A stretch of DNA of 64,000 bases from Pyrinomonadaceae bacterium (GTDB lineage: Bacteria > Acidobacteriota > Blastocatellia > Pyrinomonadales > Pyrinomonadaceae): NCBI GenBank assembly GCA_035572035.1, contig DATNBH010000070.1:37813-101812 (forward strand), written 5' to 3'. Below are positions 714-53,571 of this stretch, one piece after another. The stretch's first letter is position 1; every line of letters starts with the position of its first letter. A program made the translations under genes and the position numbers. Under the pieces are notes generated by a model. That model was not told where the DNA came from. It saw only the letters and a list, made by a program, of their open reading frames with translations, and did no database searches.

Positions 714-2126
714 CTACGCTGTGCGATGTTCCAAATTGTAATCGCGCAACCTTCGATACAAAGTCGAAGGTGAAATGCCGAGCAGCTCAGCAGTCTTACC
801 ACGATGCCAGCCAGTCTGCTCCAGTGCCGCGAGAATTTGCTGACGCTCAACTTCACGCAATGACAACGGACCCGTTGCCGCGGCTGCGGTGTTGTCGACA
901 ACCGCCGAGCTCGGCGCAGCCGCGCTTGGTTGCGGTGGCGCCAGAAAAGGCGCACGCACAACTTCCGGCGGCAACTCACTCACGGTAATCATTCCATTGT
1001 TCGCAAGTATGACCGCGCGCTCGAGACAGTTGCGCAGCTGCCGAACATTGCCGGGCCAGTGATACGCGCGCATCGCGGCCAACGCTTCCGGCGCAATCTC
1101 AGGCGGATTGGTTCCACCGACAATCTTGAGAAGATGTCGCGCCAAAGGCTCGACGTCTTCAGAGCGCTCACGCAGCGCCTTCAGATCGATTTGAAATCCA
1201 TTGATTCGATAAAGCAGGTCGGCTCGGAAAGCTCCATCACTCACAACCGTGTCGAGATTTCGATTCGTCGCGGCAATGATGCGCACGTTGACTTCGACTT
1301 TGCGCACGCCACCGACGCGGAAGAAGGTCCGCGTCTCGATCGCTCGCAAGAGCTTTGCCTGTAACTGGGCCGGCAGTTCAGTAACTTCATCCAGAAACAA
1401 CGAGCCGCCATCGGCGAGCTCTACTAAACCTAGCTTGCGTGCCTTCGCGCCTGAAAACGCTCCGGCTTCGTAGCCAAACAATTCTGATTCGAGCAGCGAC
1501 TCCTGAAACGCCGCGCAGTTGAGATCGATAAACGATCCTTGCGCGCGAGACGACAGCCGGTGAATAGCCTGGGCGATCAACTCTTTTCCAGTGCCCGACT
1601 CGCCTGTAATCAGCACCGACGTATCCGAAGGAGCGACGCGCGATACTAATCGCACCGCTTCTTTCATCGCATCGGAAACGGAAACAATTTCCGGCAACGC
1701 CGACTGTCTTGCAAGCTGCTCGCGTAGGCGCTGATTATCAACCCGCAGTTGCCGCTTCTCAGCAGCCTGACGCACGCGCACATCAAGCTCGCCAATGCTG
1801 TACGGCTTGGTGAGATAGTCATAAGCGCCAAGCTTCATCGCTTCGACTGCAGTCTCAACCGTAGCCTGCCCAGTCAGCATAATCACTTCGGGCGGATTCG
1901 GGCGTTCGTGCACGCGACGCAGTAACTCCATTCCGTCCATGCGCGGCATGTTGATGTCGCACAGCAACACATCGACATTCGTCTCTTCGAGCCGGCGCAG
2001 CGCAGCCTCGCCATCGGGCGCGACCTGAACACGATAACCGTGGCGTTCCAACTCCTTCTGCAACACCATGCGCAGGTTGGCTTCGTCTTCGGCTACCAAT
2101 ATTCGTGCTGCTTGTGATTCTGCCAA
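714..2126 (-). CDS. Sigma-54-dependent Fis-family response regulator (NtrC-like)
   Basis: N-terminal REC domain, AAA+ sigma54 activator core (GESGTGKELIAQAIH, GAFSGA), C-terminal Fis HTH. Confidence 0.9.
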   Translation of the reverse strand: MAESQAARILVAEDEANLRMVLQKELERHGYRVQVAPDGEAALRRLEETNVDVLLCDINMPRMDGMELLRRVHERPNPPEVIMLTGQATVETAVEAMKLGAYDYLTKPYSIGELDVRVRQAAEKRQLRVDNQRLREQLARQSALPEIVSVSDAMKEAVRLVSRVAPSDTSVLITGESGTGKELIAQAIHRLSSRAQGSFIDLNCAAFQESLLESELFGYEAGAFSGAKARKLGLVELADGGSLFLDEVTELPAQLQAKLLRAIETRTFFRVGGVRKVEVNVRIIAATNRNLDTVVSDGAFRADLLYRINGFQIDLKALRERSEDVEPLARHLLKIVGGTNPPEIAPEALAAMRAYHWPGNVRQLRNCLERAVILANNGMITVSELPPEVVRAPFLAPPQPSAAAPSSAVVDNTAAAATGPLSLREVERQQILAALEQTGWHRGKTAELLGISPSTLYRRLRDYNLEHRTA

Positions 2127-2128
2127 AA

Positions 2129-4177
2129 CTATCCCTCTGAAGTTGATTGATTGATGGCCGGAAGTGTTATGGTAAACGTCGTGCCCGCACCCACCGTGGA
2201 CTGCACATCAAGTCCACCACCATGCTCAGTTAAGATACCATAACAGACCGCGAGGCCAAGACCCGTTCCGTGCCCAACTTCCTTCGTTGTAAAGAACGGC
2301 TCGAAAATCTTCTGGAGATTCTCCGGAGAAATGCCGACTCCAGTGTCAGTGACTTCGACGAGAACCAGATCGTCTCGATTGCGCGCTGCGATAGTCAGCG
2401 TTCCTCCGTCGGGCATCGCATCGATGGCGTTGGTTGAGAGAGCGATGACTGCTTGCTGCAACTGACCCGCGTCGCCCGAGACTGGCGCCAGCTCGTCCGC
2501 TATTTTCAACTGGATCTCGATTCCCTCGCCTCGTTTTTGATGAGCGACGAGACGCGCTGCTGAAGAGATCACCTCGGAGAGATCGACCGGGCGTCTTCTC
2601 GCTGCGCGTGTGCGGCTGAAGTTGAGCAGACCGGTCGTGATGCTCTTGCAGCGAAAAGCTTCACTGCGAATCAAACCGAGATACTCGCGCAGATCGTCGA
2701 GCGCTTCCGAGCCGGCGAAAGCGCCTTCCTTCACTCGTGATTCCAACGCCTCTGCGCAAGCCGAGATCGTCGCCAGCGGATTATTGATTTCGTGGACCAC
2801 ACCCGACGCTAATCGTCCCACCGCCGCCAGCTTTTCGGCGCGAGCTACGGCGCGATTGGCTTCGACGCGCGCAGTGATATCTTCGCCAACCGCAATCACG
2901 TGCGTGACGTCAGTACCGCCGTCGGCCCACATCGGAATCTTACTGACCAGCCAATGACGAGTCTCGCCTTCAGCAGTCAAGGTCTCCTGCTCGACTCGCT
3001 TGATGCCGCCGGTCTTGAAAACATGCGCGAATTCCTGGTCCAGCATCTCGCGCTTCTGACGCGTCAGTACTTCGTGGACATCTTTGCCCATCACGTCCTC
3101 GCGCGGCATGCCCAACTCGCCCAGTTCGCGATTGCGGTTCCAGGCGGCGATGCGATAGTCGCGATCGATGGCGTAAAGCGAGAGCGGCAAGCTGTCGAGT
3201 ATCGCGTCGGTAAAGCGTCGCTGCGCTTCTGCTTCAGCGGTACGCTGATCGACTTCCTTAGCCAGGCTTTCAGACGCGTTGCGCACTTCGAGATAGAGCG
3301 ACGAGATGTGCGCTGCAAGCGCGGCTTGTTGCACTGCGGCTTCGACAAGGCGGCACTCCGTCTCGCCACAGTCCTCGGCGTTGTCGAAGGCTATGACCAG
3401 GACGCCTTTCGTGCGGCCGCCAAAGCGCAGCGGCGCGGCAAACTCCACCACGTGAGTTTCATCGCGAAGCAGAAAATCTTTGGGGTTGGTCAACAGCACG
3501 GACGTCATGTTGCCCGCGGAGGTTAACCAACGCTGCATGCGATCGAGATGCAGGAGTGATTCGTCTTCCGCGCTGCCTTCGCGGTCGAAGACACAGCCTG
3601 CTTGGGTCTGTTCATTCAAACCGACAAAGGCTGCGCAAAGTGCGGCGCCCGTGCCATCGAAGGTTGCGCCTGCCACTCGCCGCACCAGTTGCTCGGGCTC
3701 GAGCGTACGCAGCAGGCCTCGGCCAAGATCGGCGAGAAAGCGCAGCTCGCGATTGCTGCCGAGCAGCGCCCATTCACGTTGCGCGGCTCGAAGATGCGAG
3801 CTCACGCGCGAAACGAGCTCGCCGGCTGAGGAAGGCTTGGTGATGTAATCATCCGCGCCGGCTGAGAAGGCTTCGACTTTGCGCTTCTCATCGTCACTGG
3901 CGGAAAAAGCGATAATGGGCAGTTTGCTGGTAGCGCTTTGGGCTCGCAGCAGGCGGCACAAAGCAAAGCCATCCACGCCGGGCATCTCGAGATCGAGCAT
4001 GAGGAGGTCGCACTGTTCTCGATGGAGCAGACGCAGTGCTGATGGAGCGTCTTCGGCGGTCAGGGCTCGATAGCCCGCGTCCTCGAAGACACGGCGCAGG
4101 TTCACGCGCACCATCGCGTCGTCATCGACAATCAGGAGCGTTGCGTTGTGGCTGATTTCGGGAGCAGAAGCGGACAT
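2129..4177 (-). CDS. Hybrid sensor histidine kinase (REC-GAF-PAS-HisKA-HATPase)
   Basis: N-terminal receiver (LLIVDDD...[14 protein letters not shown]), H-box [11 protein letters not shown]-terminal ATPase G-boxes. Start chosen at internal ATG (MSASAPEIS); the Arg/Cys-rich N-terminal extension of the ORF is discarded. The stop abuts the NtrC gene. Confidence 0.85.
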
Positions 4178-4820
4178 TAGGTTCCAAGACGAGGAGTGAG
4201 ACCCAAAGGCTCGGCCAGGGGTTGCCGCTGTGCGGGTCAACTGGCTGGTATTGATTGAAAAGCATGCGGCCAGATCTGTCAAGAAGATTGATCTCCGCTT
4301 CGTCTGGCGCAGGTTGAATTCCGATTGCCAAGGTCGATGAGTTCGGAGGGTTCGGCAGTCAGTTAGGTCGTCGCGGAGTAATGCCACCCAAAGCACTTTA
4401 AGGCCGGAAAGGCCCACAAGCTTACACATCACGCTTGGGCTTAAGATTCCAAAACGTTCTGTCGACGGGCCTCAATACAGGCCGCGCCTAAGGCAAAATC
4501 AACGAAACCGAGCTCAGCAACCTAGGAGGGAATACAGACAAATGACCGTAGGTGAGGGCTGTTCTTAACCATTTCTCGTTGGTTTCTGGTAAGGGGGATT
4601 GCATATCCGCGCAACTCCTTTAGATTTGCACTTCGACTTTGAAGAAATATGTTGATTTCCTGTTAACTGCGGGTTTAATCTCACGCCGCTTCGTTATTTC
4701 TTTACTCCGCCAGCACCGCTGGCTTCTCGCGCGCCCGGACAGATCAAGCCTGGGCCGCCGGAAGATCAACCTGCAGCCGGATCGAAGCAACTCAAAAACG
4801 GCAAAACGAATTAGTACTCT

Positions 4821-5036
4821 TTAGAACACTAACAGCAGTTCTTGCAGCAGGTTCAAGGCTGCCTCCGTCACCGCCGCACTGGGCCCTTGGGTGACGCCGG
4901 GAAGCCGAATGTCACCCGGTTCCGTTGCTGCTGGCGGAGGTGGAGGACCCGGAATATGGATTTCACCTGCTACTACCGGAAGAGCCAGGACCGCAAGGAG
5001 CATTAGCGCAGCGGTGAGTTCTTTAAGTTTTTGCAT
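4821..5036 (-). CDS. Small secreted proline-rich protein (71 aa)
   Basis: AGGAGAA RBS 5 nt upstream of ATG; N-terminal signal peptide LMLLAVLALPVVAG; PPPPP stretch. Confidence 0.4.
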   Translation of the reverse strand: MQKLKELTAALMLLAVLALPVVAGEIHIPGPPPPPAATEPGDIRLPGVTQGPSAAVTEAALNLLQELLLVF

Positions 5037-5191
5037 TCGTGTTCTCCTAAATGAGGGAATTAGAAATCCTCGGAAAGGAACCGAACAGATCCCGAGATGA
5101 GGCTATCCTAGCATCCGTTAGTGGCGTCACGAACAAGCTCAAAGCACAGATGCAAATTTTTTTGCAAACGTGCTAGAAAAGGAATACTCAC

Positions 5192-7075
5192 ATGACTTTA
5201 GGGAAGGTCTTAGTTCACCAATTAGAGAACCCAAATCTCTCATTCGACGACCGCGTTGAGTTGCGGTGCAAACTTGCTAGGACCTTGGAGGAGGAGGGTA
5301 AATACGATGCAGCTCGTGAGGCGATGCTAGAGGTCTGGCCTGAATTCGACGAGAGGCCTCAGGTTGAAGGATTGTCTGAACAAAGCAGGGCTGACACCTT
5401 AATACGAGTTGGTGCGCTGACTGGCTGGATTGGCAGTGCTAACCAACTCGATGGTGCCCAAGAAATCGCCAAAGATTTCATAAGTGAAGGAATACGATCA
5501 TTCGAACTGCTGAACGAGCCTATGAAAGTCGCTGAAGCACAAACAGAACTTGCTGTCTGCTATTGGCGCGCAGGAGCCTTTCAGGAAGCTAGAGTGATTT
5601 TGCATCAAGCCTTTGGTGTCCTTAAAGAATCGCACAGTGAGGCGAAACTGGTGACCTTGCTGCGAACGGCAATAAACGAGGAGTCGGCTGGTCGCTATCA
5701 TGATGCCTTGCGAATACAAAAAGAGGCGTCTCTATTATTTGAACAGACTCCGAATTTCACACTTAGAGGCAAATTTCATCACTTATTTGGCTTTATCCTC
5801 CGGAAACTTTCGGAAGTTGAGCTTCGCCGAGATTACATTGACCAAGCTCTGATCGAATACGCGGCTGCAAGTTACTACTTCGAGGAAGCCGGACTCATCC
5901 GTCATCGAGCTTGTGTGGAAAACAATCTCGGGTTTCTATTCGGAACGATCGGAAGGTTTGGCGACGCACATGAACACCTCGACCTCGCCCAAACACTTTT
6001 CACCAGTCTGAAGGACTCGGTGCACCTGGCGCAGGTGGATGAAACTCGGGCGCGAGTGTTGTTGGCGGAAGGGCGATTGGTTGAGGCGGAGAAGACTGTC
6101 AGGGCATCGGTACGCACGCTGGAAAAGGGCGATGAGCAGTCGCTGCTCGCAGAAGCGTTAACGACCCACGGAATCGCACAAGCACGATTGAAGCACCCTG
6201 ACCAGGCAAAGGTTAGTCTGCAACGAGCTCTTGATGTAGCAGAGCGAGCGGGAGATCTCGAAAGCGCCGGCAACGCTGCGCTCGTAATCGTCGAAGAGTT
6301 AATCGACTATGTTCCGAATGATGAACTCAAGCTCACTGTAGATCGAGCCTCTGAACTGCTCGCCAAAACGCAGGACCTGTCAGCGCTGAAACGGCTCGCA
6401 AACTGTTCAAATCGCGTCCTCGCTAAGGTGCATGCCTCACCTCGCTTTCCGGGAAAGGTCGATTGGACCAACTTTTCCTTCAGGGGAACATTACTGGAGT
6501 ACGAAGCTCACCTTATCAATCTTGCGCTTGAAGATGCAGGCGGAGTGGTTAGCAAAGCGGCGCGATTGTTGGGATTCAATCATCATCAGAGTTTGCTTTC
6601 GATGTTGAATGGACGACATGAAGTCCTTCGCCACCGCAGCACGCCAATTCTGCCACGGCGTCGCAGCATCATTCGCAGTGGCGAGAACGGCTCACCGCCT
6701 GGCAAACGCGGCCGCAAACGAACGCTCAGGATACTGCTTATCGAAGACGATGCTTCTGTCTCAAGTCTAATCCAGGAGAACATCGATGGCCTGGGCGCTG
6801 AGGTCGAGGAAATTGCAGATGGCGCGTCCGGGATGGAACTGCTAGCTTCAGGTGTCCATTTCGATCTGCTGGTTCTAAAAAATGAGATTCCCGGCGTGAG
6901 TGGAAAGAATCTTGCACGTCTCGCGCGCAGCTTATCTCAGTATCGAAAGACGCCCATAGTGGTGCTTTCGGCGAACGCTGACGATCAGATTCAATCTAAT
7001 GATTCAAATCTCTTTTGGCTGAGTAGCGAGGAACCTAACCGGATAACGGAGACTATTAACCAGATTTTTCATTGA
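5192..7075 (+). CDS. TPR-like helical repeat protein with Fis-type HTH and C-terminal receiver (REC) domain
   Basis: About 440 aa of alpha-helical TPR-like repeats, then an NtrC-C-terminus-like HTH (LEDAGGVVSKAARLLGFNHHQSLLSMLN), then REC (RILLIEDDASV...FDLLVLKNEIPGVSG...IVVLSANAD). Confidence 0.75.
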   Translation: MTLGKVLVHQLENPNLSFDDRVELRCKLARTLEEEGKYDAAREAMLEVWPEFDERPQVEGLSEQSRADTLIRVGALTGWIGSANQLDGAQEIAKDFISEGIRSFELLNEPMKVAEAQTELAVCYWRAGAFQEARVILHQAFGVLKESHSEAKLVTLLRTAINEESAGRYHDALRIQKEASLLFEQTPNFTLRGKFHHLFGFILRKLSEVELRRDYIDQALIEYAAASYYFEEAGLIRHRACVENNLGFLFGTIGRFGDAHEHLDLAQTLFTSLKDSVHLAQVDETRARVLLAEGRLVEAEKTVRASVRTLEKGDEQSLLAEALTTHGIAQARLKHPDQAKVSLQRALDVAERAGDLESAGNAALVIVEELIDYVPNDELKLTVDRASELLAKTQDLSALKRLANCSNRVLAKVHASPRFPGKVDWTNFSFRGTLLEYEAHLINLALEDAGGVVSKAARLLGFNHHQSLLSMLNGRHEVLRHRSTPILPRRRSIIRSGENGSPPGKRGRKRTLRILLIEDDASVSSLIQENIDGLGAEVEEIADGASGMELLASGVHFDLLVLKNEIPGVSGKNLARLARSLSQYRKTPIVVLSANADDQIQSNDSNLFWLSSEEPNRITETINQIFH

Positions 7076-7460
7076 TCGATAGGTCGTACATACAGTTCGA
7101 CGGCAAGGAAGTCGGTCTTTACCCCTCACACTGTGGTAGCTCACCGGGCGCACTGGCGGCGCCTCAGACACCACGAAACCACCAATAACTTGCGGCCAGC
7201 CGGGGCGAAAGTCTCTTTCGCTTAACGGTATCAGTGTCGGTGAAAGACACGCCGCTTTTGAGTAGTTCGGATGGAGCTCCAACTCGAGATGCACCGATAG
7301 CGAGCCGTGCATCTCTTGCGCTGGCACGTTCGTTTATGGTGGGAACGAATGCGCCGCGAAGCCGCCACGCAACTGAGCATTACGTGGCGCAGGGGACCGG
7401 CACAGGCCTCTCACCCGTGCCGGTCTTCCGAATCAGAATCTGGAAACGATGATTAGTTCT

Positions 7461-7510
7461 GATCTCAGATCTGAGATCTGAGATCGATGATCGATGATCG
7501 ATGATCGATA
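7461..7510. repeat. Tandem heptamer repeats (GATCTGA x3, GATCGAT x4)
   Basis: Seen directly in sequence. Confidence 0.6.
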
Positions 7511-7607
7511 CCTAAGATTTGAGCCACTGAAATTCTGAGCTTCAACAACTTTCTTGCAGTACACATTGAGCTACGAAGGAGGGAAACTCGTAACAAAGTC
7601 AGAATCG

Positions 7608-7730
7608 ATATTCCACTTAGCGTTGGACGCCCAACCCTGAATTGAACGAACACGGATTCCACTTACGTTGACGGCCAACCCTAAGTAACTGCAGCCGGAT
7701 TCCACTTAGCGTGGGATGGTCCACGCACGC
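7608..7730 (+). promoter_or_regulatory. Three direct repeats (ATTCCACTTAGCGTTG-N-CCAACCCT) with about 44-bp phasing upstream of the RHS gene
   Basis: Copies begin near 7610, 7654 and 7697, lying 85-205 bp upstream of the 7814 start. This looks like a transcription-factor binding array. Confidence 0.4.
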
Positions 7731-7813
7731 AATTGCTATTCATAACACTCGTATGACTCTTGCTCGCCCATTGCTGGCTCGCTGTTGGATGAACTTTGAG
7801 AGGAGTCTAACCC

Positions 7814-10800
7814 GTGACCAACAGCACCGCTTCGCTTCGCAAGGCTTTCATTTCGCGCGTTTCCTTTTTCCTGTTTGTTCTTTCAATTCTGAGTCTGACC
7901 GCAAGTACGGCTACGGCTCAGAGAAGCATAACTGACGGATCGACACCGCTGGCGCTGACGCCGGGAGCCCCAGCAGGTTCATACGAATTAAGCAAGCTTG
8001 AATCCATAAATGCTTACAACGGCAGTTTGAACTTTCGCTTGCCCTTGGTCGAAATCGGCGGTCGCGGGAGTGCGGGTTATGTCCTGAGCCTTCCAATTGA
8101 AACGCATTGGCGCACGGTCCATCGGAGTAATGACAATCAAATGATTGAACTACCGTCTTCGAACTCGTGGGCTTTTCACAGACGCGGCTACGGCGCGGGT
8201 CAGTTAGAAGGCCGTCTCGGAACTGATCCGGATCACCCTTGTCCGCCGCTATTTCACAATACCTTGGTCTTGAGTCGTCTCACGTTCACAGCACCTGACG
8301 GCACGGAGTACGAACTACGAGATCAATTAACAGGCGGTCAGCCGCAATCCTACTTCTGCGGTGGCAACGCGTACCCTTCACGTGGGACCGTCTTCGCGAC
8401 GGCGGATGGCACTGCCGCGACCTTCATTTCGGACACGGTTATCCGAGACGACGGCTCGGTCATAAACCCGACCGGTTACCTCTCGCTTCGTGATGGCACC
8501 CGATTCAGAATTGTCAACAGTGACGTGATCTGGATGCGAGATCGAAATGGAAACCAGGTGACCTTCTCCTACGGCGACAAGGAAATGACCGTAACAGACT
8601 CATTAAATCGAAAAGTGAACGTGAAATATGCCGACTTTTCGGTTGGTCGTTTCTACGACGAAATCACTCACAAGGGTTTCGCCGGCGCTCAGCGAACGAT
8701 TCGTGTGAACTATGCACCGCTTCAATCCGCCCTGCGGACCAATCGCCCCGGAGACATAGGTACAATCCAAACATCGGCTGCCCTCTTCCCGCAATTAACA
8801 GGCGCTCCTACGCCCTCGAACCCGAACGTGGTTTCCTCGGTGGTTTTGCCCGATGGCGTGCTCCAGTATCAGTTTCTATATAACGTTTACGGCGAATTAG
8901 CACGCGTATCACTACCGACCGGCGGAGCCTATGAGTATGATTTCGGCACTGGTTCTGCGTACGGTGACGCTACCGGCGTTATTTGGAGTGGAGTGGGATT
9001 GCCTGAAATTTATCGACGCGTGTTGCGGCGCCGTGTGTACATCGATCAGGGTCTCACTCTGGTCGGGTTGTCGACGTACAGTAGGCCTGAAGTGGAGACG
9101 CCCGGCTACGTTGAAATCAACCATCTCAAGGCCGATCAGACAACCATACTCGCACGAGAGCGTCATCACTTTTACGGGATTGCCTCATCGTCATTCGATC
9201 AAAGCTCACTTGACTATTCATCCTGGCGAGACGGCAAGGAATACAAGACGGAATATTTCGGAGCGAATGGTTCTACTCTCCTGAAACGGGTCACGAACAC
9301 GTGGGGACAACGTAGTGTGAGTTGGTGGACTTTCAGTGCCGATGCCGCACCTCCGAACAATCCGTTCGTGACTGAAACCATTACGACCCTCCCCGCTACC
9401 GGACAAGTAACGAAAACATCGCACCTCAACCCGCAAAGCGGTCAGCCGATGATCGATCAGTTCAACAACATCACTGACACCTGGGTCTATGATTACGGGA
9501 AAGAAGCTCCTGGCGATTTGCTCAACCACACTCACATCGACTATTTGACGATTAACAATGGCGTCGATTATTCCAACCGGACCTCTCCTTCGAGTCCCCA
9601 CTTGTTAAGCCTTGTGACTCGGCAATCTGTCTATGACAAACTCGAAATTGAAAAAGCGCGAACAACTTTCGAGTATGACAACTATGCCGTTGACAATTTT
9701 CATGCGGGACTAAAAGACTGGCCGGCGCTAACTGGCGTTCCGATCAGTGGTCTTGATTCTTCGTTTACCGCCTCACAAACTTCTCGAGGAAATGTCACGG
9801 CCACCAACCGGTACTTGTTTGTTAATGGCCAGCCTTCACAACCAATCACTTCCTACATCCAATACGATCTAGCCGGCAACGCGGTCAAAAGCATCGACCC
9901 TCGCAGCACCGCACAGAACATCATCGCAACCACTATCAGCTACGACGATTGTTTCGGCAATCCGGACGCCGAAGCTCGCACAAATAATGTTCCAATCGAG
10001 CTGGCGTCACCCGCGCGGCGCACCTATGCCTTTGCTACCAGCGCTACCAATGCGCTTGGTCACAAAACCTATTCGCAATTCGACTACTTCCTTGGCCGCG
10101 TTGTGAATGTCGAAGATGCCAACGGTACGGTCTTCAGTGCCGGGTATAACGATGCTTTGGATAGACCGAAGCAGGTTACCAAAGCCGTGAATCGCGAGCT
10201 TAAATTCCAGAGCCTGACTACGTTTTCGTACGACGACACTGCTCATACGGTTACTACTGCAGGTGATCTGCGCTCATACGGGGACCAGGCATTAAGTGAC
10301 CAGATTCTTTTTGATGGACTGGGAAGGACTGTTGAGACTCGTAAGTACGAAGGAAACGGTAACTTCATAGCGGAACGTCGAATGTACGATGCCTTGAATC
10401 GAGTCGAGCAGTCTTCGAATCCTTTCCGTCCCTGGAAAAACGAAGGCCCTCTTTGGAATACGACTCAATTTGACGGATTGGGACGAATAGAGTTATCCAG
10501 GACGGCCGACGGCGCTACTTCAAGAATCGAGTACTCCGGCAACGAATTGCTTGCCATCGACCAGGTCGGCCAGAAAAGAAAGACTATTACCGATGCTCTC
10601 GGAAGGATCACAAAAGTCTACGAAGATCCGGATGGAGTCAATTGGCTGACCGAGTACCTTTACGACACTCTTGGGAATCTAACCACTGTCATCCAGGGGA
10701 ACCGGACTCGAACCTTCCAGTACGACGCGCTGTCACGCTTAACCTCATCGACGCAACCAGAAACCGGCACTCGGTCCAACACCTATGACCAGAATGGCAA

Positions 10801-13800
10801 TATCCTTACGAGCGCTGACGCCCGCGGCATAATCACAACTGCCGTTTACGATGCGCTGAATCGGCCCATCTCGAAAACTTATCAAAACGATCTCGCCGCT
10901 ACGCCGCCAGTTAACTTCTTCTATGACGGACAAGCGCTACCTGGCGGAGCGCCTCCGAACTTTTCCAGGGGCGCCTCCGTCGGACATCTGGTCGCTGTGG
11001 TGAACGGCGGCAGTACGAGTGAAGGCGATTATTACGGTTATGACCTGCTGGGCCGTCCGGTTATGAAGGTGCAGCGCACGGGTAACAGCAACTATGAGAT
11101 TAACACCGACTACAACGCCTCAAGCCGCACTATTTCGCTAATGTACCCTTCCGGTCACACTGTCTCGTACAACTACGACTCGGCGGGCCGGCTCGCTGAT
11201 CGAGATGGACAGAACCTGGCGATGGTCGGCAATCTCGGAGACGGTTTAGTACGCACCTACTCGAGCGGCATTACCTACAGTAATCGGAACGGACTGGCTC
11301 AGGAAAAACTCGGCACCGACACTGCGATTTACAACAAGCTCTTCTACAACTCTCGCGGACAGCTAGCCGAAATTCGAGCCGGCACCAGTGGGAACAACAC
11401 CAGTTGGAATCGCGGCGCCATCATTAATCATTTCAGTAACTCCTGCTGGGGTATGTGTGGAGGCGCTAACTCCGCCACTAGCATGACCGACAATAATGGC
11501 AATCTAAAACGGCAAGATGTTTACATTCCACAGAACGAACAGGTTTCGAGTTATACAACTTGGGCGGACGGCTACACTTATGATAATCTCAACCGGCTCA
11601 CACAGGTCCATGAGTACACTGACAATCCCTCGCTTGATTGGCAGCAATCTTTCGTCTACGACCAGTGGAGTAACCGGCGCATCAATCAAGCGCTAACTTA
11701 CGGGCCTTCGATTCCCAAGCCGGACTTCACCGTAGACAGTAACAACAGGCTGGCCGCCCCCGCTGGTTTCAACCTAAGCTATGACCCTTCCGGCAATCTC
11801 ATCTCTGATAACTTCACCGGAGAAGGTCAACGTGTTTATGACGCCGAGAATCGCCTGATCAAAGCCTGGGCCAACGGCCAATGGCAGACCTACACGTACG
11901 ACGCGATGGGTCAACGCACCAAACGCAGCGTGTCGGGAACCGAAACCTGGCAGATCTATGGTTTCTCGGGAGAGCTATTGGCTGAATACGCCGCCAACAG
12001 CGCGCCGACAATGGTCAGGAAAGAGTATGGCTATCGGAATGGGCAGTTGCTTGTGACAGCAGAACCCGCTCAAGCGGCGCGCACTAACTATGCCTTGGCG
12101 AGCAATGGAGCAATCGCGACCGCCTCATCGATTTTGTCAAACGCGTTTCCCGCTAGCGGGATTAACAACGGCGATCGAAAAGGATTGAACTGGGGCAATG
12201 GCGGAGGTTGGCGAGATGCCGAGCCAGGTAACACTTTTCCGGATTGGGTCGAGATAACTTTTCCGAGCGCGAAGACGATTGATGAAGTTGACGTCTTCAC
12301 TGTCCAGGACAACTACGCGAACCCCGCAGAACCGACTGAGGCAATGACCTTCGGCGTTTATGGGCTGACGGGTTACGAGGTGCAGTACTGGAACGGGAGC
12401 AGTTGGGCAACAGTCTCCGGTGGCAGCGTTACCGGTAGCAATAAGATCTGGCGCAAGATCACTTTTACGGCGCTCACTACAGCGAAGGTCAGAGTGCGAA
12501 CGAATGCGTCCATCGATGGCTACAGTCGTTTGGTGGAAGTTGAAGCCTGGGGCACTACGTCTGGAGCAGCACCGCGCACGAATGTAGCGCTCGCCGGTAA
12601 TGGTGGCGTGGCGAGCGCTTCCTCGCAATTGTCTGCATCATTTCCGGCGAGCGGAACGATTAACGGCGATCGGAAAGGGCTGAGCTGGGAAAACGGTGGC
12701 GGCTGGCGTGATGCTGAACCGCGAAACAGTTTTCCGGATTGGCTGCAGGTGGAGTTCAACGGCAGCAAGACCATCGATGAAGTCGATGTATTTACGATTC
12801 AGGACAATTACGCCAACCCGTCGGAACCAACCGAGAACATGACGTTCACTACCTATGGCACCACTGGGTATGAAGTGCAGTACTGGAATGGAAGTTCGTT
12901 CGCGGCAGTGCCGGGGGGCGCAGTCACAGGTAACAACAGAGTCTGGCGCAAGATTACTTTCCCTGCGGTGACAACCACGAAGATTCGAGTGCTAACAAAT
13001 GCAACCGCAGATGGCTATAGCCGGCTGGTTGAAGTGGAAGCGTGGACGGCGAGCTCAAGCTCCAGTGAGGCAAACATAAATTGGTTACTCGCGGACCAAC
13101 TCGGAACGCCACGAATGGTCTTCGATAAGTCGGGAAGTCTTGCATCTGTAAAGCGCCATGACTATCTGCCTTTCGGCGAGGAGATCGGCGCAGGCGTTGG
13201 CATCCGGAGCAATTCGCTTGGATACAGCCTAAGCGACGGCGTCCGCCAAAAGTTCACCTCAAAAGAGCGAGACAGCGAAACGGGTCTCGACTATTTTCTG
13301 GCGCGTTACTATCACAGTTCTCAGGGAAGATTCATAAGTCCCGACCCGCTCCTCGCGAGTGGCCGCCCCGGCAACCCTCAAACCTGGAATCGCTATGCGT
13401 ATGCTTTGAATAATCCGCTGCGGTTCACCGATCCCGACGGTCTGGCTGCTAATGAAAGCACCGGCTTCGTTGATTTTCAACAAGGAAATACCCCACAACA
13501 GCCACTACCGACGCCGCCAACTACCCAGCAAAGCGGGACAGGTGAAAATGGACAGGTGTTCGCACCCAAGATAGACCTGACGACATTTTCCTTCGGAACG
13601 GTGGAAGTTAATGGAGCGTCGCCCATTTTCGCAGGCCCTCCTGTACCCTTGGATAGTCAGCCAAATTTGATAATGAACCAAGGAACGACGGCTATGGCGA
13701 ATAATGATTTGAATGGCATGATCGCCATTACCGAACTGCTATTGCACCCAGGTACAGGCGGCGCGGTATCTCTTTCACTCTCTTTGGGTACGGGTGTCGC

Positions 13801-14107
13801 CCCGAACATCAACTGGACTCTAAACAAGACTTTTTACGTACGCTCGCCGGAGGAGGTGTTGCTCCAAACCGGAATCGCGAACCGCACCATCCAGGGAGGA
13901 GTAGCAGAGAAGTTGTCTAAAACTGAAAGCTTAGTTGCTGCTGGCGGAAACTGCCCCAGGCGACTAGGTGACGTCGCAACCATTGGGGGTGCAAATCTGG
14001 CATCAATCTTTGGCCAACAGGCTCGTGACACTGCCCAGGAGGTCGCGCTAGCCAGGTATCAACAGGACTACAGTGCTAACCCATCCTCGGAGTATGTGCC
14101 GCATTAG
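7814..14107 (+). CDS. RHS/YD-repeat polymorphic toxin protein with two tandem F5/8-type-C (discoidin) domains, RHS core (DPDGL) and variable C-terminal toxin domain
   Basis: Sec signal peptide. About 25 YD repeats ([28 protein letters not shown]...). Two roughly 160-aa discoidin-like domains of about 75% identity at 12085-12555 and 12575-13045. RHS core [17 protein letters not shown]...[11 protein letters not shown] ends near 13446. An unrelated roughly 215-aa C-terminal domain follows. GTG start with AGGAG RBS. Confidence 0.9.
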
Positions 14108-14166
14108 AAAAACGGAAGATCGTAGCGATGTTCACCAAATCTGATTCAGTCCAAGGAAGGAGTGCT

Positions 14167-14832
14167 ATGACCCTACGCAAACCTGTTCTCTTTGCTCTTA
14201 TCTCTTTGAATCTCTGTTTTCAATCGATCGACTTCCGCTGCCTCGCGCAAAACGGAAATATAGTTGTACCTGCGCCGGTATCGATTTATCCGCCAGCGCC
14301 GGCGTTGGAGGCGAAGGCGGTCGGCGATGTGAAGTCGTTTAAGCGAACGCGGTCTGATCTCAAGGCTTCAGTGTTGTCTCACCCGATTCCCGAGGCAACC
14401 CTCGTTTTCGTCTTGCGCGACAAACGGGATGCCAAGGTGATTGTGAAATTGCCAGAAGAAGCAAAGAAGCCACTGACGGAATGCTGGCATGCTGAACTCA
14501 CTTTCTTCTACCTGAGTACGTTCGAAGTTCATGACCTCGAAACCAGAATCAGGGAGCGAGAGACCTTCGGATCCGTGGTGGCAAATGTCCAGGCCAAACT
14601 ACAGAAGTTGACCATAGATACTCCAACCGGCAGGAGAAAGATCTCTCTGAATGAAGCTGTTAGTCTGACGCATCTCCTAAATGAATCGGCTCAATGCGTC
14701 GTTGACGAAGCGAAAGAGAGCCTCAGAGGCAAACCTGTTGCTGGAGTGAAGGGTAGACAGCGATGCCATTTTTTGGCTTCATTCGACGCGATGGACGAAA
14801 CCATGCAGAGTTTGAACCTGACAGGCACATAA
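14167..14832 (+). CDS. Secreted protein immediately downstream of RHS toxin (candidate immunity protein)
   Basis: GGAAGGAG RBS; signal peptide MTLRKPVLFALISLNLCFQS..CLAQ; 60 bp after the RHS stop; no recognisable domain. Confidence 0.45.
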   Translation: MTLRKPVLFALISLNLCFQSIDFRCLAQNGNIVVPAPVSIYPPAPALEAKAVGDVKSFKRTRSDLKASVLSHPIPEATLVFVLRDKRDAKVIVKLPEEAKKPLTECWHAELTFFYLSTFEVHDLETRIRERETFGSVVANVQAKLQKLTIDTPTGRRKISLNEAVSLTHLLNESAQCVVDEAKESLRGKPVAGVKGRQRCHFLASFDAMDETMQSLNLTGT

Positions 14833-37667: not shown

Positions 37668-38435
37668 TCAACTTTCCTCAAGCACCAGGCCGTCGTACGC
37701 CCACTCGACACCCGCAGGTAATTTAGCGGAGTCTCGCTCGTGCTTCACATCATGAGCAATGTGAGTGAGGTATGCTCGCCGTGGCTTTAGTTCATCGATG
37801 TACTCCAAAGCTTTATCCAGCCAAAGATGCGTCGGATGCTCTTTGAAACGCAGGCAGTCGAGCACAAAAACGTCGAGACCACGCAGCGCGTCCATGGTCG
37901 CAGGCGGAATCTCACTCAAGTCGGTCGCGTAAGCAAAATCATTGAAGCGATAAGCCATCACCGGCAGACGGCCGTGAATTACTTCGAGGGGTGTGACTAG
38001 CAAATCCCTTCCCACACAAAACGGCGCGTAAGGGAAAACGGTGTGCGCGACAACCTGGGGCAAGCCTCCGCCAAAATAAGTCGGCTCAAAAATGTATTTG
38101 AAGATCCGCCGGATGTCGGGCCAGGCTCGCTCATTGGCGAAGACACCGAGCGCGCCGAATCGAAAATTCAAAGGACGGATGTCGTCGAGCCCGAAGATGT
38201 GATCGGCATGGCAATGCGTAATCAGCACTGCATCGAGCCGCTTCAACCCGAAACGCAACGCCTGCTGACGAAAATCTGAGGAAGTATCTACAAGAATTGT
38301 TTGGCCGTCGTGTTCAATGACGATTGAAACGCGCAGTCGCTTGTCGCGAGGGTCATCTGAGACGCAGGTCTCGCACTGGCAGGCGATGGATGGAACGCCG
38401 GTGGATGTCCCCGTGCCGAGGAAGGTTAGCTTCAT
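37668..38435 (-). CDS. MBL-fold metallo-hydrolase
   Basis: HCHADH motif; MKLTFLGTGTSTGVP N-terminus. Confidence 0.8.
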   Translation of the reverse strand: MKLTFLGTGTSTGVPSIACQCETCVSDDPRDKRLRVSIVIEHDGQTILVDTSSDFRQQALRFGLKRLDAVLITHCHADHIFGLDDIRPLNFRFGALGVFANERAWPDIRRIFKYIFEPTYFGGGLPQVVAHTVFPYAPFCVGRDLLVTPLEVIHGRLPVMAYRFNDFAYATDLSEIPPATMDALRGLDVFVLDCLRFKEHPTHLWLDKALEYIDELKPRRAYLTHIAHDVKHERDSAKLPAGVEWAYDGLVLEES

Positions 38436-52145: not shown

Positions 52146-53456
52146 TTACACGGCGCCGAACATCCGCAAGCGAAACTCGTCATTGAAAGCCACGATTTCA
52201 ACGCGACGGTTCGAAAACTGCCGAGCCTCTCGCTGCAGCGCCGGTAAACCGCCTGGGAATAGTTTCAGACCATAAGCTGGATTATTGAAGATCGAATGTA
52301 CCTGCGGATTGAGTCGTTGCGAAATGCCATAGCGAATCGCTTTTTGAGCTACTGGAGAAAACCCGGTCGATCGCCTTGGGTTAACAAATTCCAGACTGCG
52401 ATCCAGGATTTGTAGTCTCGTTGTCTGGTCCCGCAATGCCAGGTCACGATGGACCAGCATGTTTGCCACAGCCTCACTCAACGCGCCGCGATGATAATTT
52501 GCTCGAGCAGCTACGGGACTATCGATGGCATCGACACTGGACCATGTCCGAGGTTTCGAGTCCCACAAGTCACAGTAGCGAGAAACGAATCGCAGGCAGC
52601 TCTCGAAAACCGTAAAAAGATTTCCACTTAACTGTATGCGCTCGATGACCGGAGCTTGAATTGAATCACCTGCATATCTGGTCGCTACGATTGTCGAGCG
52701 AGGAAGCAATTCAGCTACTCGAGCGTCGCGGCCGAACAGTAGTACGCCGGCGACACTCGGGACAGGTTCCGCAGCCTCGGTCGCCGTCAACAACAGATCT
52801 TTTTCGAAGACAGATTTGGTGGGATAACCGTTAGGGCTCGTTTCATCAAAGGCATCGCCGTCAAACTCGCGGACGAAACTCCAAAGCAAGCCTTCATCGA
52901 TGTCTGCCATCGTGGCTCCAAGCGCGGCCACGTTCTCGAAGCGGGCCGGACGGGCTTCATCGAGCAATGCCGACAGCTCTTCTCGGGTAGCTTCGCGTTT
53001 CTCGGATCCGATTCGGACATAAAATCGTCCCTCGCGGGTACGATATGGGCGACGCCGGCCTTCGATGTCGAGTGCAACCACTCTCCTGCCGCTATCAAAT
53101 GCAATGCGATCAATGAACGGAATTATCGAAGGCGTAACTTCGTCACGGCATATCCGAACTAACTCGTCCTGTACACTTTCAGGATCTTCGACTCCCTCGA
53201 GGCGCAGTTGATCGTTCACGCCAAACACGATCACGCCGCCACCCGTGTTTGCGAGGGCCACAATTTCCTGCGCAATTTTCTCGGAGTTTGATAGCTTTAC
53301 TTTTAGCTCAAGAAACGTGTCTTCGCCGCCACGAACGAGGCGTAATAGTTCGGTTCGCGAAGTCTGAGGAGCAGGAGTGGAAAGGACGTATTCCTGGAAG
53401 GACCGCTCGGTTTTGGGTTCGTGTCGCTGATTGCTGCGAAATCGTCTGCGAGCCAT
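52146..53456 (-). CDS. AlbA_2 (Schlafen-like divergent AAA) + HATPase_c_4 putative DNA-binding regulator
   Basis: N-terminal EDTFLELKV...ALANTGGGVIVFGV; C-terminal ANMLVHRDL....I.IL.DRSLEFVNPR. Confidence 0.7.
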   Translation of the reverse strand: MARRRFRSNQRHEPKTERSFQEYVLSTPAPQTSRTELLRLVRGGEDTFLELKVKLSNSEKIAQEIVALANTGGGVIVFGVNDQLRLEGVEDPESVQDELVRICRDEVTPSIIPFIDRIAFDSGRRVVALDIEGRRRPYRTREGRFYVRIGSEKREATREELSALLDEARPARFENVAALGATMADIDEGLLWSFVREFDGDAFDETSPNGYPTKSVFEKDLLLTATEAAEPVPSVAGVLLFGRDARVAELLPRSTIVATRYAGDSIQAPVIERIQLSGNLFTVFESCLRFVSRYCDLWDSKPRTWSSVDAIDSPVAARANYHRGALSEAVANMLVHRDLALRDQTTRLQILDRSLEFVNPRRSTGFSPVAQKAIRYGISQRLNPQVHSIFNNPAYGLKLFPGGLPALQREARQFSNRRVEIVAFNDEFRLRMFGAV

Positions 53457-53571
53457 TTTGTGTTGACGGGGCTCTGTGGTGCCCGCCCGGACGCTACGCA
53501 ATCAGAACGCCAGCGTCACTGGAATCGATCAAATTAGAACAAAGTGAGTGTAACACAGCTCGATCGTCGGA

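Follow-up and report, generated by a model that had tools for sequence, protein, structure and literature searches.

Genes and features at the locus

The stretch of DNA investigated here (in the following, the window) comprises 64,000 nucleotides of a Pyrinomonadaceae bacterium (Acidobacteriota, class Blastocatellia; positions 37,813 to 101,812 of contig DATNBH010000070.1, assembly GCA_035572035.1). It holds a complete gene for an Rhs protein, i.e., a protein with a wall of YD (tyrosine-aspartate) repeats, in which two tandem discoidin domains stand between this wall and the Rhs-associated core. We find the gene to be a typical member of a large, uncharacterized family of Rhs toxins that are independent of type VI secretion systems (T6SS). 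Within this family, the place taken by the discoidins is a slot with variable content. Respective features are listed in Table 1.

Table 1. Features of the Rhs locus with positions in the window (aa, amino acid positions in the Rhs protein; ORF, open reading frame)
Feature	Position	Strand	Basis
Shine-Dalgarno-like GAGAGGAG, 8 nt 5' of the GTG start codon	7798..7805	+	direct sequence reading
Rhs gene, complete, 2097 aa plus stop codon	7814..14107	+	ORF list and translation
Sec-type (signal peptidase I) signal peptide, aa 1-35, predicted cleavage between ATA and QR	7814..7918	+	sequence features
Rhs/YD beta-cocoon wall, aa 36-1420, last YD hairpin at its end	7919..12073	+	RHS_repeat E 3e-23, structure model, Foldseek
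Discoidin (F5/8 type C) domain 1, aa 1425-1581, first slot module	12086..12556	+	Pfam F5_F8_type_C_2 and F5_F8_type_C above gathering score
Discoidin (F5/8 type C) domain 2, aa 1588-1744, second slot module	12575..13045	+	Pfam; 72-73% identical to domain 1
Rhs-associated core (predicted C-terminal seal and aspartyl autoprotease), aa 1748-1877, SPDPLL...TDPDGL at its end	13055..13444	+	TIGR03696, PDB sequence matches, invariant columns
Putative C-terminal toxin tail, aa 1878-2097: P/Q-rich linker (about 40 aa) and a domain of about 150 aa, no known family	13445..14104	+	
Candidate immunity gene with its own signal peptide, 234 aa as called, likely start M14 at 14167	14128..14832	+	

The Rhs protein is encoded by a single ORF, from the GTG start codon at 7814 to the stop codon at 14105-14107. 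Its closest relative (P0001, 74% identity) has the V-T-N-S-T start in common with it. An earlier note on this DNA had let the gene end at 13446. This is where the Rhs core stops (DPDGL, aa 1873-1877), such that a toxin tail of about 220 aa had been omitted.

A variable slot between wall and core

The insertion point lies exactly at the boundary of shell and core, i.e., the last YD hairpin is followed by the slot and then by the core start WLVTDQLGTPR. Hairpin and core are 343 residues apart in the Rhs protein of the window compared to 10-11 residues in insert-free homologs. The full-length protein has 948 relatives at E <1e-10, and those with a named source are labelled Acidobacteria or Pyrinomonadaceae. 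To map the slot, the last 121 wall residues and the 130-residue core were located in the 120 best relatives. The sequence on both sides of the slot is almost invariant, and the gap in between spans 10-1140 aa. Wall and core segments abut in 9/120 relatives; otherwise 105-1124 residues lie between them.

Most of these slots hold one discoidin (47) or two (26), while 3 combine a discoidin with another module, 32 hold other modules, 9 are without insert and 3 are undetermined. That is, discoidins are found at the slot in 76/120 of the closest database relatives, a set that is biased towards them since the query contained them. All discoidin domains fall inside the slot, and NCBI names some of the relatives 'discoidin domain-containing protein'.

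Given this bias, we searched the species-representative genomes of GTDB with the N-terminal 1200 residues only. Relatives are encoded at at least 340 loci, the best 80 of which are almost all from Blastocatellia (Pyrinomonadaceae, Chloracidobacterium, Blastocatellales), with few from Terriglobia or Bryobacteraceae. Several genomes carry two or more copies of the gene. The slot was scored in 58 species-representative genes: 25 show no insert, 7 two discoidins, 6 one discoidin, and 20 other modules. The two-discoidin form is thus a common variant, and the gene of the window is a typical member of the commonest slot type. The earlier note had considered the arrangement unusual, based on the view that the shell normally runs directly into the core, and had named a survey of domain order as the test to refute this. 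Within the family, the direct junction is found in under half of the genes (25/58), and discoidins ahead of the core are common (76/120 and 13/58 in the two sets). By the note's own standard, its claim of rarity is thus refuted here.

The other slot modules are diverse. We find Laminin_G_3 (ConA-like), either alone or together with DUF2341, an FN3-like domain combined with a helical-repeat module of about 100 aa (with or without DUF4214), a DUF4082-like module, and several beta-rich modules without family assignment. Giant inserts also occur, one of which contains five PD40 propeller, eight Big_7 and four Y_Y_Y stretches. All modules found in the slot of relatives are extracellular binding-type folds. 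Since 25/58 genes are without insert, the shell closes without needing one. Inserts of up to 1124 aa are unlikely to be placed inside a cocoon that must also house the toxin.

Three family members (L040, L059, L071) were found in metagenome-assembled genomes (MAGs) labelled Anaerolineae, Heliomicrobium and Oligoflexales. This is due either to horizontal transfer out of Acidobacteriota or to contigs placed in the wrong bin.

The discoidin pair

When aa 1410-1762 are scanned alone, both PF22633 (F5_F8_type_C_2; 54 bits, cut-off 27.8) and PF00754 (F5_F8_type_C; 51 bits, cut-off 28.2) match in two stretches. The hidden Markov model scan proposed in the earlier note hence supports both discoidin domains above curated cut-offs, and the coordinates assigned to them there are right to within one base. 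Presence of the tandem pair and its place ahead of the core are likewise upheld, while the identity of the two copies had been put slightly too high, i.e., it is 72-73% at the protein level (114/157 residues; about 66% for the DNA) and not about 75%. A PDB sequence search with the pair gave no relative. Galactose-type glycans and phospholipids of eukaryotes are classic ligands of discoidin (F5/8 type C) domains.

Next, we compared discoidins within and between proteins. Paired copies of one protein have a mean identity of 0.75 (range 0.50-0.96). Between proteins, first copies compared with first copies give 0.54, second with second likewise 0.54, and first with second 0.53. Since copies are more alike within than between proteins, pairs were either duplicated repeatedly or kept alike by conversion or selection. 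An ancient fixed pair is rejected, as within-protein copies are far more alike than positional counterparts across proteins. The pattern fits a scenario where both copies would share one specificity that differs among proteins.

A search with discoidin domain 2 gave mostly short gene fragments. We rejected their interpretation as stand-alone discoidin lectins ('orphan slot cassettes'), because these short genes start mid-domain or are remnants of Rhs 3' ends.

Wall and core

The wall is matched by Pfam's PF05593 (RHS_repeat, E 3e-23) in four stretches and by NCBIfam's TIGR01643 (YD_repeat_2x, E 1e-9). We modelled the first 1200 residues of the protein based on 56 homologs (predicted local distance difference test, pLDDT, 85; predicted template modelling score, pTM, 0.81). 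In this model, a low-confidence helix (aa 8-32) precedes the mature N-terminus, which is conserved across the family; the signal peptide leads directly into beta strands, and the structure is all-beta from aa 63. Foldseek's top match in the PDB is the T6SS effector RhsA (7q97; E 4e-29, template modelling (TM) scores 0.48/0.54), followed by Tse5, S. bongori Rhs and TcdB2-TccC3, and then by teneurins; the mosquito protein SGS1 ranks lower. A Foldseek probability of 1.00 is reported for 7q97, 8cp6, 8qjb-d, 4o9x, teneurins, the bacterial teneurin-like protein 9ifo and SGS1. As modelled, the scaffold is a true Rhs cocoon.

The core is identified by TIGR03696 (Rhs_assc_core) at aa 1808-1877 with E 1e-18 and 67.5 bits (cut-off 32.5). 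It has columns that are invariant across 56 homologs, and the aspartyl-autoprotease motifs SPDPLL...DPDGL are found at aa ~1840-1877. In solved Rhs proteins, these motifs are part of the aspartyl autoprotease domain, and the core seals one end of the cocoon in RhsA (PMC8765631). Sequence matches in the PDB are limited to the core and a few repeats (RhsP 8h8a/8h8b, S. bongori Rhs, Tse5 8cp6), and a PDB sequence search with the first 800 aa of the protein gave no useful match.

Toxin tail and downstream gene

The tail has no Pfam match. A word-indexed protein search with it returned nothing, although the relative P0005 clearly has the tail in common with our protein. An exhaustive HMMER profile search of 1.84 billion representatives identified only 6 relatives of the tail, none of them annotated. 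In 4/6, the tail is preceded by Rhs core or repeat sequence, while 2/6 are short tail-only products. The tail model (pLDDT 72) shows a disordered P/Q-rich linker, three long helices and one hairpin.

Other family members end in DNase_NucA_NucB, HNH, colicin-E3 'Cytotoxic', Colicin_D, Gln_amidase, YkuD or DUF922 domains, and one further tail is an Ntox21 domain with a DUF3885 gene downstream. Judged by these assignments, the tails of the family are classic antibacterial toxins.

The candidate immunity protein has no Pfam match and is 60% identical to the product of the gene downstream of P0005. The downstream protein carries a signal peptide at both loci. Its export would imply that the toxin acts in the periplasm or envelope, or else that protection is needed there during export. 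Most likely, the toxin acts in the periplasm or envelope, as the signal peptides suggest.

Assortment of slot and tail

Two relatives illustrate how slot and tail combine. P0005 is 66% identical over the shell, has no insert, and ends in the same toxin tail (54% identity, 166 bits). P0004 is encoded at a syntenic locus (L002) in an Acidobacteria MAG and has two discoidins, a different tail and an unrelated downstream gene. From these alignments, slot and toxin tail appear to assort independently.

The synteny with L002 covers a sigma-54 activator (92.5% identity), a hybrid histidine kinase (82%), a regulator with tetratricopeptide repeat (TPR), helix-turn-helix and receiver domains (60%), and the Rhs protein (60%). 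Divergence is thus uneven along the locus (714-7075 of the window compared to L002:554-6853), and the TPR-receiver regulator adjacent to the Rhs gene keeps pace with the toxin gene in its evolution.

A Pyrinomonadaceae MAG (contig k141_983100, L004:2116-7315) contains orphan Rhs 3' fragments in an array. Two of the fragments start inside or near the discoidin end, continue past the core and end in a toxin tail; a small signal-peptide gene follows each of them. A third starts at the discoidin start and breaks off just past where the core begins, and a short shell remnant is found between fragments. The 13.9-kb contig has no full-length Rhs gene. Going by this gene order, the array is a classical Rhs displacement pattern with breakpoints that seem to reach into the slot. 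In P0110, the insert (aa 1507-1843) holds the same beta-rich module of about 150 aa, which has no family assignment, in two copies, with a second copy of the junction hairpin between them. The duplicate hairpin looks like a recombination scar at the slot.

Signal peptide and gene neighborhood

At the N-terminus, a basic n-region and a hydrophobic core lead up to an A-x-A site, such that the N-terminal Sec signal peptide postulated in the earlier note is well founded in all three regions. Using a simple heuristic on hydrophobicity and charge, we find a signal-peptide-like N-terminus in 106/121 family members, and the failures are mostly truncated gene calls. The mature N-terminus following the A-x-A site, which starts with Q, is kept in more than 100 relatives. 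Whether the protein is 'Sec-secreted', as the note had put it, is a different matter: the inner-membrane step is accounted for, while the outer-membrane step is not covered by a Sec signal.

We scanned 33 ORFs of the window, including every ORF of at least 150 aa up to a distance of about 12 kb from the gene (11 ORFs, with 22 further ones). They encode regulators, transporters, peptidases and housekeeping enzymes. No T6SS, type II secretion system (T2SS) or TcA gene is among them or at the loci of two relatives, and neither set contains vgrG, an Eag chaperone gene or T6SS core genes. Within aa 1-500 of the Rhs protein, no PAAR, prePAAR, VgrG-binding or other domain is matched in Pfam or NCBIfam even at E 0.1. 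The earlier note had seen no PAAR or VgrG-associated N-terminus and had concluded that the protein is likely no T6SS cargo. Both statements agree with our results, the former directly and the latter with good support, given the lack of a T6SS-type N-terminus and of T6SS genes in the window and at the two relatives' loci.

Elsewhere in the window and unrelated to the Rhs gene, an ORF at 52146-53501 (-) encodes a Schlafen AlbA_2 domain (E 6e-22) amid genes for histidyl-tRNA synthetase, aspartyl-tRNA synthetase and pantoate ligase.

Upstream region

The gap of 738 bp between the TPR-receiver gene and the Rhs gene holds a non-coding element of about 150 nt (7282-7434, +). Its identity to the same position in L002 is 89.6%, compared to just 60% for the TPR-receiver and Rhs proteins encoded on either side. 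The element folds into four hairpins (-70.3 kcal/mol, z -3.46) and includes the motif TGGCAC; Rfam gave no match. A small RNA and a leader are conceivable, as is a control region of the sigma-54 type, and the gene of a sigma-54 activator is conserved in the vicinity.

Further downstream, three tandem copies of ATTCCACTTAGCGT...GACGnCCAACCCT with about 44 nt spacing are found at 7610-7741, i.e., 70-200 nt 5' of the Rhs start codon. They are absent upstream of the syntenic ortholog and may be binding sites of a regulator. In between, short palindromic and tandem repeats are located at 7458-7512 (TCTGATCTCAGATCTGAGATCTGAGATC, followed by several GATGATC), including a perfect 12-nt palindrome pair at 7461-7485.

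Interpretation and alternatives

On balance, we think it probable that the protein is a T6SS-independent polymorphic Rhs toxin of a Blastocatellia-typical family and that its slot displays a swappable binding module. By analogy to solved Rhs, Tc and SGS1 structures, the core would seal the C-terminal mouth of the cocoon and cut off the tail, which would stay inside, while the slot modules would loop out from the rim and sit outside the shell. On the target cell, a surface glycan or another receptor could then be bound by the discoidin pair as a bivalent head, much as CdiA or colicins use their receptor-binding domains. The slot module and the toxin-immunity cassette would be swapped independently via recombination at conserved flanks. 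The earlier note had suggested receptor or glycan targeting. Binding or targeting would indeed be the most reasonable function; the slot modules of relatives are all binding-type folds.

Several points weigh against this interpretation. Seven aligned tails have no invariant His, Asp, Glu or Cys, the tail has no fold match in the PDB, and it is presumed to be toxic from its context. That the downstream gene confers immunity is deduced from a single co-varying pair. In the window, we found no component for export across the outer membrane or for anchoring at the surface, and Sec reaches only the periplasm of a diderm cell. A ligand of the discoidins is presumed, and the outside position of the modules is likewise an inference, as the structure model covers aa 1-1200. 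Furthermore, recent duplication or gene conversion might suffice, without any selection, to explain why the discoidins of one protein are so similar.

The discoidin pair may instead anchor the toxin on its producer, e.g., on exopolysaccharide, capsule or an outer-membrane glycan, for contact-dependent use, so that the modules would not choose the target. Self-anchoring has been proposed for lectin-type domains of signal-peptide toxins (passages of Zhang et al. 2012; PMC3482391), bacterial teneurin-like YD proteins are described with surface-anchoring and adhesion domains (excerpts of PMC13018210), and we saw neither a lipobox nor a PEP-CTERM or S-layer domain that could anchor the Rhs protein otherwise. 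Still, we regard producer anchoring as rather unlikely. A general need for anchoring would go unmet in the 25/58 members without slot module, and slot content differs among relatives of 60-66% shell identity, which is a better fit to diversifying target recognition. Moreover, Zhang et al. give anchoring mainly to N-terminal domains, at least in those passages (PMC3482391). A mechanical role, where ligand binding by the slot modules is coupled to cocoon opening and release of the cleaved tail, would agree with an insertion exactly at the hand-over from wall to seal, with the sealing of the cocoon by the core in RhsA (PMC8765631), and with the exit of toxins from Sec-type YD shells being an open question in the excerpted text of PMC13018210. 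It is pure inference, and unrelated folds of 105-1124 aa in the same slot as well as the many members without any argue against a specific mechanical coupling, such that we give a trigger or gate only a slim chance.

If the discoidins bind eukaryotic glycans or lipids, which are their classical ligands, the protein might be a toxin of the Tc/SGS1 type against protists, fungi or nematodes, and both TcdB2-TccC3 and SGS1 are among the fold matches. What makes this even harder to accept is that family tails such as colicin D, colicin E3, HNH and Ntox21, together with adjacent small genes, form the signature of inter-bacterial polymorphic toxins, that the co-varying downstream protein at the locus is exported, and that neither a TcA-like partner nor a TcB beta-propeller was detected. 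Finally, the best fold matches are T6SS Rhs effectors and our view of the genome is limited to 64 kb, such that the protein might be loaded onto a T6SS via an adaptor encoded elsewhere, with its N-terminal hydrophobic stretch being a transmembrane or prePAAR-like helix. We give this hardly any credence: PAAR, prePAAR, VgrG-binding and clade domains are all missing from the protein, the A-x-A site and the conserved mature N-terminus described above come after the hydrophobic stretch, and T6SS genes are missing from the neighborhoods screened.

The gene of the window itself is of modest value; the general result, i.e., a swappable display slot beside the seal, is moderately interesting. By which route signal-peptide YD shells get to and into their targets is openly unresolved according to the teneurin-like protein paper from 2026 (excerpts of PMC13018210). 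The family provides a natural series of similar cocoons that differ mainly in their slot (nothing, one or two lectin domains, ConA-like domains, propeller and Ig arrays) and is thus a ready-made test of whether the modules set target specificity. In addition, the slot points to a place in a toxin container that might accept grafted binding domains of foreign origin.

Comparison with known systems

Lectin domains embedded in RHS toxins (2012) and outside inserts of carbohydrate-binding module (CBM) and lectin type on a YD shell (2023) are already known. Signal-peptide ('T2SS') RHS toxins are a standard class in the survey of Zhang, Aravind et al. (2012), which reports discoidin, RicinB and bulb-lectin domains among RHS repeats or near the toxin module, possibly for target contact (PMC3482391). 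Like the protein of the window, this class combines signal peptide, RHS repeats and C-terminal toxin. In the portions of the survey considered here, there is no defined insertion point, slot concept or acidobacterial survey, and the subset with adhesion domains comprises firmicutes, actinobacteria, proteobacteria and bacteroidetes but not acidobacteria (PMC3482391). Our literature search, covering open-access papers, found no account of the slot between wall and seal, of the modules that it may hold, of its being independent of the toxin cassette, or of the acidobacterial family, and none is given in the passages considered of this survey and of the papers on SGS1 and bacterial teneurin-like proteins.

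T6SS Rhs effectors (RhsA of P. protegens 7Q97, Tse5, RhsP, S. bongori Rhs) share with our protein the YD-repeat cocoon (see the Foldseek scores above), the core with DPxGL motif, the variable C-terminal toxin, the downstream immunity-type gene and, in relatives, orphan 3' cassettes. They differ in their N-terminus and genomic context, since the protein of the window has a Sec signal peptide, no PAAR, prePAAR or VgrG-binding N-terminus and no T6SS genes nearby, for which reasons a T6SS reading was set aside. Furthermore, its wall comprises about 1385 aa ahead of the slot compared to about 1020-1085 residues for whole solved chains. To our knowledge, no module slot between wall and core is known from solved T6SS Rhs proteins, whose structures were not compared here.

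The BC subunits of Tc toxins (TcdB2-TccC3, YenBC) are similar in cocoon fold, core autoprotease and encapsulated variable tail. In contrast, the protein of the window is a single chain with signal peptide. A TcB/TcC-like reading was rejected, as the protein has neither a TcB beta-propeller gate nor SpvB and no TcA-like gene is found in the window.

A teneurin-like reading was rejected as well, since FN-plug, NHL and TIP Pfam domains are missing and the matches to teneurins and bacterial teneurin-like proteins (TLPs) are limited to the shell (TM ~0.2). The NHL propeller is part of the teneurin fold. A precomputed 'TEN_YD-shell' label reflects the shell only. TLPs (PDB 9IFO) are described, in excerpts of the respective paper, as Sec-signal YD shells with toxin, variable adhesion domains and immunity genes but no known delivery machinery, and one C-terminal domain was toxic only if sent to the periplasm (PMC13018210). 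The likeness to our protein is in the Sec-signal YD shell around a polymorphic toxin. TLPs differ by their teneurin superfold with TTR, FN-plug and TIP, and Gram-negative TLPs are mostly lipoproteins processed by signal peptidase II (SPII), according to the same excerpts (PMC13018210). Our protein has a DPxGL Rhs core and matches T6SS Rhs and TcBC proteins better than teneurins.

Mosquito SGS1 (PDB 8FJP), solved in 2023 by cryo-electron microscopy, carries CBM and lectin beta-sandwiches, the latter a carbohydrate-recognition domain (CRD), inserted in its YD region. The inserts sit side by side on the outer surface of the shell, for which cooperative glycan binding was suggested (excerpts of PMC9935623). 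A YD shell with binding inserts and a retained aspartyl-protease site is thus found in both cases. SGS1 differs in being eukaryotic, with 3364 aa and two beta-propellers, in its mid-shell inserts, and in its payload, which consists of helices and no polymorphic toxin, as far as these excerpts describe it (PMC9935623).

A functional parallel, in outline, may be sought outside the fold. CdiA has a conserved delivery scaffold with an internal receptor-binding region that can be exchanged, and its C-terminal toxin, with immunity gene, can be swapped independently. An internal modular receptor-binding region within a delivery effector would be common to both (passages of PMC5371414). In contrast to our protein, CdiA is built from filamentous haemagglutinin repeats and exported by two-partner secretion via CdiB, has no cocoon and shows no homology. 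Tentatively, and with more doubt than the reading given above, the family might represent a fourth class of YD cocoons, in which two independent cassettes (the slot between wall and seal, and the toxin with its immunity gene) would provide for receptor-mediated, T6SS-independent delivery in diderms, with the target range being set by the slot as in CdiA and colicins.

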